Shown here: positions 17,319 through 20,773 of the stretch, piece after piece
Layout: each line of letters starts with the position of its first letter
Position numbering within the stretch: position 1 is the stretch's first letter
Assembly (NCBI RefSeq): GCF_030384885.1
Contig: NZ_CP128613.1
Reading direction: 5' to 3' (one strand)
Length of the DNA: 64,000 nucleotides
DNA from: Escherichia coli
Lineage (GTDB): Bacteria; Pseudomonadota; Gammaproteobacteria; Enterobacterales; Enterobacteriaceae
The notes under the pieces: generated by a model
The model's database searches: none
Seen by the model: only the letters and a program-made list of their open reading frames with translations
Told to the model about the DNA's origin: nothing
Position numbers and translations under genes: made by a program

Positions 17319-18629
17319 ATGGGTCAGGTTTTACCGCTGATTACCCGCCAGGGCGATCGTATCGCCATTGTTAGCGGCTTACGTACGCCTTTTGCCCGTC
17401 AGGCGACGGCTTTTCATGGCATTCCCGCTGTTGATTTGGGGAAGATGGTCGTAGGCGAATTGCTGGCACGCAGCGAGATCCCCGCCGAAGTGATTGAACA
17501 ACTGGTTTTTGGTCAGGTCGTACAAATGCCTGAAGCCCCCAACATTGCGCGTGAAATTGTTCTTGGCACCGGAATGAATGTCCATACCGATGCTTACAGC
17601 GTCAGCCGCGCTTGTGCTACCAGTTTTCAGGCGGTTGCAAACGTCGCCGAAAGCCTGATGGCGGGAACTATTCGTGCGGGGATTGCCGGCGGGGCAGATT
17701 CCTCTTCCGTATTGCCCATTGGTGTTAGTAAAAAACTGGCGCGCGTGTTGGTGGATGTCAACAAAGCCCGCACGATGAGCCAACGACTGAAACTTTTTTC
17801 TCGCCTGCGTTTGCGTGACTTAATGCCCGTACCGCCTGCGGTGGCGGAGTATTCCACAGGCTTGCGGATGGGCGACACCGCCGAACAAATGGCGAAAACC
17901 TACGGTATTACTCGCGAACAGCAAGATGCGCTGGCGCACCGTTCACATCAGCGTGCTGCTCAGGCATGGTCAGAAGGTAAGCTCAAAGAAGAGGTAATGG
18001 CCGCCTACGTTCCTCCTTATAAACAACCGCTCGCGGAAGACAACAATATTCGCGGCAATTCCACGCTTGCTGATTACGCAAAGCTGCGTCCGGCGTTTGA
18101 TCGCAAACACGGGACGGTAACGGCAGCAAACAGTACACCGCTGACCGATGGCGCAGCGGCGGTGATCCTGATGACTGAATCACGGGCGAAAGAATTGGGC
18201 CTGGTGCCGCTGGGATATCTGCGTAGCTACGCATTTACCGCTATTGATGTCTGGCAGGACATGTTGCTCGGCCCGGCCTGGTCAACGCCGCTGGCGCTGG
18301 AACGCGCTGGATTGACGATGGCCGATCTGACATTGATTGACATGCACGAAGCCTTTGCCGCCCAGACGCTGGCTAATATTCAGTTGCTTGGCAGCGAACG
18401 TTTTGCGCGCGACGTACTGGGGCGTTCCCATGCTACTGGTGAAGTGGACGATAGTAAGTTTAACGTGCTTGGTGGTTCCATTGCGTACGGGCATCCCTTC
18501 GCAGCGACTGGAGCGCGGATGATTACCCAGACATTGCATGAACTTCGCCGTCGCGGCGGTGGATTTGGCTTAGTGACCGCTTGTGCTGCTGGTGGGCTTG
18601 GTGCGGCAATGGTTCTGGAGGCGGAATAA
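17319..18629 (+). CDS. fadI: 3-ketoacyl-CoA thiolase FadI (anaerobic beta-oxidation)
   Basis: 436-aa thiolase ORF. Confidence 0.95.
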
Positions 18630-20773
18630 TGGAAATGGCATCAGCTTTTACTCTTAATGTTCGTCTGGACAACATTGCAGTCATCACCATCGACGTTCCC
18701 GGTGAGAAAATGAATACCCTGAAGGCGGAGTTTGCCTCGCAGGTGCGCACCATTATTAAGCAACTTCGCGAAAACAAAGAATTACGTGGAGTTGTATTTA
18801 TCTCAGCGAAACCGGACAACTTTATCGCCGGAGCAGACATCAACATGATCGGCAACTGCAAAACGGCGCAAGAAGCGGAAGAGCTGGCGCGGCAGGGGCA
18901 ACAGTTAATGGCGGAGATTCATGCTCTGCCTGTTCCGGTTATCGCGGCTATTCATGGCGCTTGCCTGGGGGGCGGGCTGGAACTGGCACTGGCGTGTCAT
19001 GGCCGCGTCTGCAGTGACGATCCTAAAACGGTGCTTGGCTTGCCGGAAGTTCAGCTTGGATTATTGCCAGGTTCAGGCGGCACCCAGCGTTTACCGCGCC
19101 TGATAGGTGTCAGCACAGCATTAGAGATGATCCTCACTGGAAAACAACTTCGGGCGAAACAGGCATTAAAGCTGGGGCTGGTGGATGACGTCGTTCCGCA
19201 ATCCATTTTACTGGAATCCGCCGTTGAGTTGGCAAAGCATGATCGACTATCTTCCCGCCCGCTACCTGTACGCGAGCGCATTCTGGCGGGGCCGCTAGGT
19301 CGTGCACTGTTGTTCAAAATGGTCGGCAAGAAAACAGAGCAGAAAACTCAGGGGAACTATCCGGCGACAAAACGCATTCTTGAAGTCATCGAAACCGGAT
19401 TAGCGCAAGGCACCAGCAGCGGCTATGACGCGGAAGCCCGTGCCTTTGGTGAACTGGCGATGACACCACAATCGCAGGCTCTGCGTAGTATCTTTTTTGC
19501 CAGTACCGAAGTGAAGAAAGATCCGGGCAGTGATGCTCCGCCTGCGCCGTTAAATAGCGTAGGGATTTTAGGCGGTGGCTTGATGGGGGGCGGTATTGCT
19601 TATGTTACTGCTTGTAAAGCGGGCTTGCCGGTCAGAATTAAAGATATCAACCCGCAGGGCATAAATCATGCATTGAAGTACAGCTGGGATCAGTTGGAGG
19701 GCAAAGTGCGCCGCCGACATCTCAAAGCCAGCGAACGTGACAAACAGCTGGCATTAATTTCGGGAACAACGGATTATCGCGGCTTTGCCCATCGTGACTT
19801 AATTATTGAAGCAGTGTTTGAAAATCTCGAATTAAAACAAAAGATGGTGGCGGAAGTAGAGGGAAATTGCGCCACTCATACCATCTTCGCTTCGAATACG
19901 TCATCTTTACCAATTAGTGATATTGCCGCTCACGCCTCGCGGCCGGAGCAGGTTATCGGTCTTCATTTCTTCAGCCCGGTAGAAAAAATGCCGCTGGTGG
20001 AGATCATTCCCCATGCGGGGACATCGGCGCAAACCATCGCTACAACGGTAAAACTGGCGAAAAAACAGGGAAAAACGCCAATTGTTGTGCGTGACAAAGC
20101 CGGGTTTTATGTCAATCGCATTTTAGCGCCTTACATCAATGAAGCTATCCGCATGTTGACTGAAGGTGAACGGGTTGAGCATATCGATGCCGCACTGGTC
20201 AAGTTTGGTTTTCCGGTGGGACCAATCCAACTTTTGGATGAGGTAGGAATCGATACCGGGACTAAAATTATTCCTGTACTGGAAGCCGCTTATGGAGAAC
20301 GTTTTAGCGCGCCTGCAAATGTTGTTTCTTCAATTTTGAATGACGATCGCAAAGGCAGAAAAAATGGTCGGGGTTTCTATCTTTATGGGCCGAAAGGGCG
20401 TAAAAGCAAAAAACAGGTCGATCCTGCTATTTATCCGCTGATTGGCGCGCAAGGGCAGGGGCGACTCTCCGCACCGCAGGTTGCTGAACGGTGTGTGATG
20501 ATGATGCTGAATGAAGCTGTACGTTGTCTGGACGAGCAGGTTATCCGTAGCGTGCGTGACGGGGATATCGGCGCGGTATTTGGAATTGGGTTTCCGCCGT
20601 TTCTCGGTGGCCCATTTCGCTATATCGACGCTCTCGGTGCGGCAGAAGTGGTTGCAATAATGCAACGTCTGACCGCGCGGTACGGTTCTCGTTTTACCCC
20701 TTGCGATCGTTTAGTTGAGATGAGCGAGCGTGGGGAAAGTTTTTGGAAAACAACTGCAACTGACCTGCAATAA
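18629..20773 (+). CDS. fadJ: Fatty-acid oxidation complex alpha subunit FadJ (enoyl-CoA hydratase / 3-hydroxyacyl-CoA dehydrogenase)
   Basis: 714 aa from [11 protein letters not shown]; ATG overlaps fadI stop (TAATG); ORF-track start 18581 is an upstream extension. Confidence 0.95.

Follow-up and report, generated by a model that had tools for sequence, protein, structure and literature searches.

The stop codon of fadI and the start codon of fadJ in Escherichia coli have one base in common, and the question is whether such an arrangement makes translation of the second gene depend on that of the first or is simply a by-product of compact gene packing. In the stretch of 64,000 nucleotides analysed here (the window), a sequence-only reading had found the motif TAATG at this and four other gene junctions; it had proposed that the motif couples translation and supports both the operon assignments and the chosen start codons.

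One-base stop/start overlaps in the window

The motif is indeed present at all five junctions. The gene models (PGAP) were lifted without gaps onto the window from the closest RefSeq genomes, and the lifted ORFs are all intact:

2478..2482, + strand: stop of the emrK remnant and start of emrY, TAATG with shared A 2480; weak Shine-Dalgarno (SD) sequence GGAC, -3.0 kcal/mol (gene models)
18627..18631, + strand: fadI stop TAA (18627-18629) and fadJ start ATG (18629-18631), A18629 in common (gene models, 81-sequence comparison)
32122..32126, + strand: mepA stop and yfcA start, TAATG with shared A 32124; weak SD (gene models)
32931..32935, + strand: yfcA stop and epmC start, TAATG with shared A 32933; GGGGA at 32921-32925, 7 nt upstream (gene models)
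41983..41987, + strand: usg stop and truA start, TAATG with shared A 41985; CAGGAGT at 41968-41974, 10 nt upstream (gene models)

At 5/5 junctions the upstream gene ends in frame at the TAA, whose last A also opens the ATG of the next gene on the same strand, giving a co-directional overlap of -1 nt; the downstream genes are all intact. Such stop/start overlaps, of the TAATG/TGATG class, are ordinary and the pattern is already known: the published K-12 table (Huber et al.) has all five pairs at -1, and this spacing is the second commonest in E. coli and in 1,695 species. The operon assignments are likewise supported. A one-base overlap has no space for a terminator, which places both genes on one mRNA; in K-12 the mRNA of usg is as abundant as that of truA (196 versus 198), RT-PCR has shown co-transcription of the two in Salmonella, and fadIJ is a documented operon.

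Both genes are intact at fadI/fadJ, mepA/yfcA, yfcA/epmC and usg/truA. At emrK/emrY the motif and its geometry are as previously described, but emrK cannot be counted as an intact gene, since in the window it is split by an insertion sequence:

72..1402, - strand: IS2-type (IS3 family) insertion of 1331 bp, splitting emrK, with the 5-bp target duplication AGGAG at 67-71 and 1403-1407

Its length (~1.33 kb), the 5-bp duplication and the two overlapping transposase ORFs on the - strand (946..1356, 136 codons; 83..988, 301 codons) are those of an IS2 element of the IS3 family, and the best matches, at 98.5-99.8% identity, carry the annotation 'IS3-like element IS2 family transposase'. The emrK remnant next to emrY (1440..2480) has 346 codons; in the closest relative, strain 2013C-4282, emrK is intact and the emrK/emrY junction is identical. 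With emrK truncated by IS2, any argument for coupling at this junction is moot here unless the remnant is translated. The 'frameshifted' evgS, yfcP and yfcO of strain 162.2 were taken as assembly errors, these genes being intact in the identical F1053 sequence.

Overlaps of four bases are found at three other junctions:

26588..26591, + strand: yfcR/yfcQ, ATGA (gene models)
27073..27076, + strand: yfcQ/yfcP, ATGA (gene models)
52372..52375, + strand: hisQ/hisM, GTGA, with a GTG start (gene models)

The earlier description of all of these as ATGA is thus correct for the two yfc junctions and mistaken for hisQ/hisM.

The + strand of the window carries 77 copies of TAATG, against ~63 expected from base composition. 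TG directly follows 9 of the 54 TAA or TGA stops, producing five TAATG, every one of which starts the next gene, and four TGATG (after the stops of emrY, yfcS, purF and yfcH), none of which starts a gene. A TG thus comes by chance after roughly one TAA/TGA stop in six, and the motif by itself is no proof. The -1 overlaps account for 5/39 same-strand pairs (12.8%) as compared with 11/157 (7.0%) in a K-12 sample consisting of two parts of Huber's table counted by eye, an excess that is not significant (binomial P = 0.13; Fisher one-sided P = 0.19). Spacings of -8 to +6 nt occur at 10/39 pairs in the window and at 707/2987 genome-wide. The fact that all five stops are TAA was also considered, and its significance rejected (P = 0.17 given local stop usage).

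Conservation of the junctions and choice of start codons

The fadI/fadJ junction comprises the following features, in addition to the overlap itself:

17319..18629, + strand: fadI, 3-ketoacyl-CoA thiolase, beta subunit, 436 codons (homology, lifted gene models)
18629..20773, + strand: fadJ, trifunctional enzyme alpha subunit, 714 codons (lifted gene models; PDB 6YSV/8BNR match residues 1-714)
18617..18621, + strand: GGAGG, SD for fadJ, within Leu-Glu-Ala codons of fadI and 7 nt before the ATG (predicted anti-SD pairing -9.3 kcal/mol)

Among Enterobacteriaceae this junction reads T[A/G]ATG in 81/81 sequences (76 TAATG, 5 TGATG), and none of the 81 departs from GGAGG, even at two third positions where a synonymous change would be allowed (CTG and GAG, both 81/81); in the same sequences the four-fold sites near it are close to saturation, with entropies of 1.1-1.9 bits. 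Such invariance, extending even to synonymous sites, indicates purifying selection on both the overlap and the GGAGG that precedes the ATG by 7 nt. This fits with the nature of the products, as FadI and FadJ assemble into a tight heteromeric trifunctional enzyme; complex subunits are enriched 4.5-fold among the short overlaps of E. coli. In our judgement this is the junction where coupling by overlap is most likely to be functionally important, its products being subunits of one hetero-oligomeric enzyme.

We consider the overlap least likely to matter at mepA/yfcA/epmC, where functionally unrelated genes are closely packed and the overlap itself is labile in evolution. C. koseri and Pluralibacter have a mepA/yfcA spacing of -1, Mangrovibacter one of +11, Erwinia +9 and Pantoea +84. 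At yfcA/epmC the -1 spacing recurs in S. enterica, C. koseri, Pluralibacter and Mangrovibacter, but Erwinia/Pantoea have +84/+78. The yfcA overlaps are thus by and large kept within Enterobacteriaceae, whereas in Erwinia and Pantoea both junctions are spacers of 9-84 nt with the gene order intact. (A Salmonella contig in which phd/yoeB is inserted, epmC is truncated and mepA is not called was left out of this comparison and a typical contig used in its place.) At usg/truA, S. enterica, C. koseri and C. amalonaticus retain both T[A/G]ATG and CAGGAG, and the overlap geometry is conserved in the five lineages sampled, a shallow comparison because the Usg homologues listed reach down to 89% identity only.

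Could some of these overlaps be artefacts of mis-called starts? In-frame ATGs are present at codon 3 of fadJ (18635) and codon 9 of yfcA (32148), and the annotated lengths of YfcA homologues vary by genome (261, 265-267 or 269 aa), so that some of the junctions might in reality be short gaps. This seems very improbable. The overlapping ATG of fadJ is kept in 81/81 sequences and the codon-3 ATG in only 42/81, and the conserved GGAGG lies 7 nt from the former but 13 nt from the latter. Similarly, YfcA homologues share the motif M-E/D-x-F/W starting at the overlapping ATG, but Pluralibacter, Erwinia and Pantoea have S or V in place of Met9. For truA, epmC and emrY a nearby alternative ATG is absent. 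The earlier view that the start codons were correctly chosen is thus upheld in part, by comparative evidence for fadJ and yfcA, and for truA and emrY by the lack of any alternative start within 20 codons. The TetRP and TRAINSPOTTER supplements yielded no start-site or N-terminus data for these genes.

Proposed translational coupling and its alternatives

Translational coupling at the five pairs is plausible, and we think it probable that they are ordinary -1 overlaps between co-transcribed genes in which translation of the downstream gene depends partly on that of the upstream one. A ribosome ending the upstream gene would halt with the next start codon already in its mRNA channel, and the same ribosome or 30S subunit could then reinitiate, aided by the SD within the last upstream codons; alternatively, the passage of the ribosome might keep the site accessible to a fresh 30S subunit. 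By either route the downstream gene would be partly dependent on upstream translation, with an efficiency below 1 that is specific to the junction. Published work disagrees on whether reinitiation or fresh initiation underlies coupling. In reporters, native E. coli pairs with an overlap were coupled, and this collapsed once the gap had been extended to ~20 nt; 4/5 native pairs were coupled in one study and 3/3 were distance-dependent in another. The SD requirement ranges from essential to none (Huber et al.). The predicted pairing of the embedded SD is strong for fadJ, moderate for truA (-6.9 kcal/mol, 10 nt) and epmC (-5.5 kcal/mol, 7 nt), and weak for emrY and yfcA (about -3 kcal/mol for both).

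A different explanation is that fresh 30S subunits initiate independently at each downstream site, the overlap having no regulatory role and being a neutral by-product of compaction and of the ease with which TA/TG-ATG arises. RRF depletion left the downstream/upstream ribosome ratios at overlapping pairs unchanged genome-wide, and such profiling, together with reporters, suggests that reinitiation is not the dominant route. One overlapping pair that was tested, bioBF, proved to be uncoupled, and the abundance of short overlaps has been attributed in a review partly to their ease of evolution; the chance TG after four further TGA stops and the loss of the yfcA junction overlaps in Erwiniaceae point in the same direction. 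So does usg/truA, where the K-12 translation efficiencies (1.054 for usg, 0.387 for truA) correspond to 2.7-fold fewer ribosomes on truA, although steady-state profiling of this sort gives a ratio and not a dependence. With equal mRNA for the two genes, output is not equimolar. The overlap and a lower expression of hisT were reportedly described for the hisT operon by Arps et al. in 1985. At other -1 pairs of K-12, ileS/lspA and murD/ftsW, the ribosome density drops 5-6-fold. Such drops imply that the hand-off, if there is one, is inefficient, or else that initiation is independent. Nevertheless, we find wholly independent initiation rather unlikely: the fadI/fadJ geometry is kept in 81/81 sequences, with switches from TAA to TGA preserving the overlap even though the N-terminus of FadJ tolerates indels, 4/5 native pairs were coupled in the one study and 3/3 distance-dependent in the other, and the SD pairing of emrY and yfcA is too weak to suggest efficient unaided initiation.

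It is also conceivable that mRNA structure masks the downstream ribosome-binding site, and that a fresh 30S subunit gains access only when ribosomes pass through the last upstream codons. Saito et al. prefer this unfolding mechanism, a 2025 review presents it among its two models, and when the sequence is folded singly, few sites of the window are as paired as the fadJ SD and start (mean P(unpaired) 0.31), the GGAGG itself being base-paired. However, a local RNAalifold consensus of the 81 fadI/fadJ sequences has no helix over the SD and start (-6.4 kcal/mol, 0 compensatory pairs), so that at this junction no conserved structure sequestering them was found, and the accessibility at the five junctions (0.31-0.54) is within the range of the non-overlapping starts of the window (0.31-0.65). 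Unfolding is accordingly, in our estimation, a distinctly less probable explanation than independent initiation, and partial dependence on upstream translation is the reading that we retain.

A more ambitious version of this would make fadI/fadJ a selected ribosome hand-off device that sets the alpha:beta ratio and promotes the co-translational assembly of FadIJ, with the mepA/yfcA/epmC overlaps the result of drift and the IS2-broken emrK a natural experiment in which emrY, itself nearly devoid of an SD, would lose translation; we offer it only tentatively and consider it doubtful as a whole. As a source of stoichiometry, the proteome tables of Mori 2021 were unusable, with mostly zeros for FadJ, EpmC and MepA.

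Relation to known overlapping pairs

The five pairs have a geometry identical to that of the -1 overlap pairs compiled by Huber et al. (2019/2023) and covered in the review of Brown & Wade (2025). Their resemblance to this class extends to the embedded SD upstream at 3/5 pairs, and to emrKY and fadIJ, which encode complex subunits, the enriched category. The resemblance is not complete, however: 3/5 pairs here join functionally unrelated genes, the experiments of Huber et al. used other pairs than these five, and their table marks fadI/fadJ as 'no complex', yet FadI and FadJ form the trifunctional enzyme. Another parallel is provided by trpB-trpA and trpE-trpD, with stop/start overlaps of one or a few bases in an operon for subunits of one enzyme, as with fadI/fadJ; coupling in trp was shown genetically by nonsense mutations, whereas we infer it for the five pairs here, and in a reporter the trpB-trpA coupling factor was only 1.7. 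The paralogous aerobic trifunctional enzyme is likewise encoded by a two-gene alpha plus beta operon, fadBA, ~35% identical to FadIJ, but its gene order, alpha then beta, is the reverse of fadIJ. Finally, in the structure-gated coupling of rplK-rplA and atpH-atpA the downstream gene depends on upstream translation, as proposed here, but these pairs need a defined inhibitory fold that covers the ribosome-binding site of the second gene, and no conserved structure was found at fadI/fadJ.

Overlaps such as these give conventional support to operons and annotated starts, and carry little weight beyond annotation quality. Nor does an overlap mean equimolar translation, as the 2.7-fold drop from usg to truA illustrates. 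The frozen fadI/fadJ junction set beside the labile yfcA junctions does provide a small, clean case of selected versus unselected overlaps.

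One-base overlaps in the window and the genes around them

A sequence-only reading had proposed translational coupling at five junctions where TAATG joins the TAA stop of one gene to the ATG of the next, and a direct check of the sequence found the motif at all five. In every case the upstream reading frame ends at this TAA, whose final A also opens the following ATG.

One-base stop-start overlaps
emrK remnant/emrY, shared A at 2480
fadI/fadJ, shared A at 18629
mepA/yfcA, shared A at 32124
yfcA/epmC, shared A at 32933
usg/truA, shared A at 41985

The gene models are those of PGAP for the closely related strain F1053, lifted gap-free onto the window; all are intact ORFs that open with a start codon and contain no stop before the terminal one. 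The window is part of an E. coli chromosome. Over the fadIJ stretch used for searching, strains 162.2 and F1053 match it at 100% identity and 2013C-4282 at 99.9%, and at usg/truA 2013C-4282 matches it at 100%; the genome comparison found no record collinear with the entire window. The earlier operon and start-codon inferences hold, and the observation itself stands apart from two details. First, the four-base overlap of hisQ/hisM, given as ATGA, is actually GTGA with a GTG start (those of yfcR/yfcQ and yfcQ/yfcP are ATGA, as had been said). Second, emrK is split in the window: positions 1-71 correspond to emrK nucleotides 21-91 and the match picks up again at 1403, the interruption being the following element.

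72-1402, 1331 bases, opposite to emrK and about 90 nt into it: IS2-type element with IS2-type termini and two minus-strand transposase ORFs

The insertion is flanked by a target duplication, AGGAG, at 67-71 and 1403-1407, and the emrK remnant adjoining emrY comprises only 346 codons (1440..2480). The closest relative, 2013C-4282, carries an intact emrK and has the same emrK/emrY junction string as the window. None of the complete E. coli genomes in the collection matched the IS2-in-emrK arrangement as a single collinear alignment.

Several other features of the region deserve mention. Between 15141 and 29080 every gene from fadL to smrB is 100% identical to F1053 and 162.2, the flanking genes being 87-98% identical (lowest dedA, 87.4%), and of 5425 E. 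coli genomes 5403 share only 90-95% identity with the fadIJ stretch; the block looks like a rare, divergent haplotype gained by recombination. A sucrose-utilisation cluster (LacI-family regulator, cscA, kinase and MFS transporter; 5493-10817) adjoins dsdA, and dsdX is reduced to a fragment at about 5493-5690. The record of strain 162.2 (L001, 1-254 and 27074-28477) labels evgS, yfcP and yfcO as pseudogenes with frameshifts; all three are intact in the otherwise near-identical F1053, and the frameshifts are probably assembly errors. The folC/dedD pair overlaps by 11 nt (45937-45947); the start codon is GTG and the embedded Shine-Dalgarno (SD) sequence, CGAGGAGA, is strong (-8.9 kcal/mol). Gene callers place the same 11-nt overlap in S. 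enterica and C. koseri. Finally, yfcJ (plus strand) and flk (minus strand) converge, their 3' ends overlapping by 4 nt at 38676-38679.

Frequency of the motif

The five-junction pattern has been published before: Huber et al. 2023, in a supplementary table, place all five pairs at a spacing of -1, and hisQ/hisM at -4, in K-12. In E. coli, as in prokaryotes generally, only one spacing is commoner than -1 (TAATG or TGATG), according to that work and a 2025 review. TAATG by itself is common, with 77 copies on the plus strand of the window where base composition predicts about 63, and TG directly follows 9 of the 54 TAA or TGA stops in the window. All five stop-linked TAATG start the next gene, whereas the four stop-linked TGATG start nothing.

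TGATG at a stop codon where no annotated gene starts
4016-4018, emrY
26058-26060, yfcS
48883-48885, purF
55003-55005, minus strand, yfcH

These four are a reminder that the motif can arise at a stop codon by chance; it is therefore the long homologous ORF behind each ATG, and not the motif, that validates the five junctions.

Nor are the five overlaps enriched over the genomic norm. The 39 same-strand adjacent pairs in the window include five at -1, three at -4 and one each at -11, +1 and +2; 10 (26%) fall within -8 to +6 nt, compared with 707 of 2,987 (24%) in K-12 (Fisher P = 0.71). A count over 157 pairs, from two arbitrarily chosen sections of the published K-12 table, gave 11 at -1 (7.0%) and 18 at -4 (11.5%). 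The window's 5/39 is about twice this -1 rate, but the excess does not reach significance (binomial P = 0.13; one-sided Fisher P = 0.19). The use of TAA at all five stops is equally unremarkable (P = 0.17).

Conservation of the junctions

For fadI/fadJ we compared 80 Enterobacteriaceae loci, one genome per species (FadJ identity 75-95%), together with the window. The one-base overlap is present in all 81 sequences, as TAATG in 76 and TGATG in five; four seeming exceptions proved to be N-terminal alignment offsets, all reading gaaTAAtg. A GGAGG lying 7 nt 5' of the fadJ ATG, within the fadI codons Leu-Glu-Ala, is also invariant, its two synonymous positions being CTG and GAG in 81/81 (the first codon is Leu in 78 and Val in three). 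In contrast, the four-fold sites around it have entropies of 1.1-1.9 bits, and the final Glu of fadI is encoded by GAA in 74 sequences and by GAG in seven. Only 42/81 have the other possible fadJ start, an ATG at codon 3, and FadJ residues 2-4 are variable and tolerate indels. Together these observations point to purifying selection acting on the SD and overlap as a unit, and single out the overlapping ATG as the fadJ start. FadI and FadJ associate tightly in a hetero-oligomeric trifunctional enzyme, and in E. coli genes for complex subunits show a 4.5-fold enrichment of short overlaps; the "no complex" flag on this pair in the published table is an under-annotation.

At usg/truA, in a small and shallow sample (S. 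enterica, C. koseri and C. amalonaticus), T[A/G]ATG and CAGGAG are kept while adjacent synonymous sites vary. The spacing at the two yfcA junctions differs among lineages, although the order aroC-mepA-yfcA-epmC-yfcL is the same in all those compared.

Spacing (nt) at mepA/yfcA and at yfcA/epmC
Window, K-12 and Citrobacter koseri: -1 and -1
Pluralibacter (TGATG at both): -1 and -1
Salmonella enterica: -1 at yfcA/epmC, the junction covered
Mangrovibacter: +11 and -1
Erwinia: +9 and +84
Pantoea: +84 and +78

Annotated lengths of the YfcA homologues range from 261 to 269 aa. Nevertheless, comparison of the proteins supports the annotated yfcA start, because the N-terminus encoded from the overlapping ATG, M-E/D-x-F/W, is kept, and three lineages have S or V in place of the internal Met9. 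An atypical arrangement occurs in L085, a Salmonella enterica contig of GCA_020212165.1 (1400-2678), where a phd/yoeB toxin-antitoxin pair lies immediately 3' of yfcA, the antitoxin overlapping it by about 5 nt and epmC being cut after 9 codons; here mepA has no stop and runs in frame into yfcA, with no mepA gene called. In some assemblies a TauE (YfcA) domain and an EpmC domain are encoded by a single ORF (P0005, 452 aa; P0090, 363 aa). Where genes overlap by one base, an indel of one base suffices to bring both into one reading frame, and these ORFs may be either genuine or sequencing errors.

Translation across the overlaps

One study found coupling in four of five native overlapping E. coli pairs, and in another all three pairs tested were strongly distance-dependent, a separation of about 20 nt almost abolishing coupling; bioBF overlaps yet is initiated independently. 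In K-12 the usg and truA mRNAs are equally abundant (196 vs 198), but ribosome density is 207 for usg and 77 for truA (TE 1.05 vs 0.39; Burkhardt et al. 2017, supplementary file 1). Thus usg/truA, the sole pair of the five with such data, gives unequal output. Two further -1 pairs with similar mRNA levels show a 6-fold drop from ileS (581) to lspA (94) and a 5-fold drop from murD (136) to ftsW (27) (Burkhardt et al. 2017). Unequal translation over one-base overlaps seems to be common, and the output of these three pairs counts against an equimolar or obligatory hand-off.

RRF depletion left downstream/upstream ribosome ratios at overlapping pairs unchanged, a result that its authors take to speak against reinitiation and to favour de novo initiation accompanied by melting of the mRNA. 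Under a melting model the downstream site at fadI/fadJ would be closed by secondary structure. A single-sequence fold does pair much of the fadJ SD and start, whose mean P(unpaired) of 0.31 is among the lowest in the window. However, the consensus of the 81 sequences has no helix at the SD or start, reaching only -6.4 kcal/mol with no compensatory pair, and the accessibility of the five junctions (0.31-0.54) lies inside the range of non-overlapping starts (0.31-0.65), so that local conserved sequestration is not supported. Predicted SD strength varies widely among the junctions: -9.3 kcal/mol for fadJ, -6.9 for truA, -5.5 for epmC and about -3 for emrY and yfcA. By analogy with the pairs studied elsewhere, translational coupling at the five junctions is a reasonable, if unproven, proposition, the case being strongest for fadI/fadJ and weakest for the yfcA junctions.
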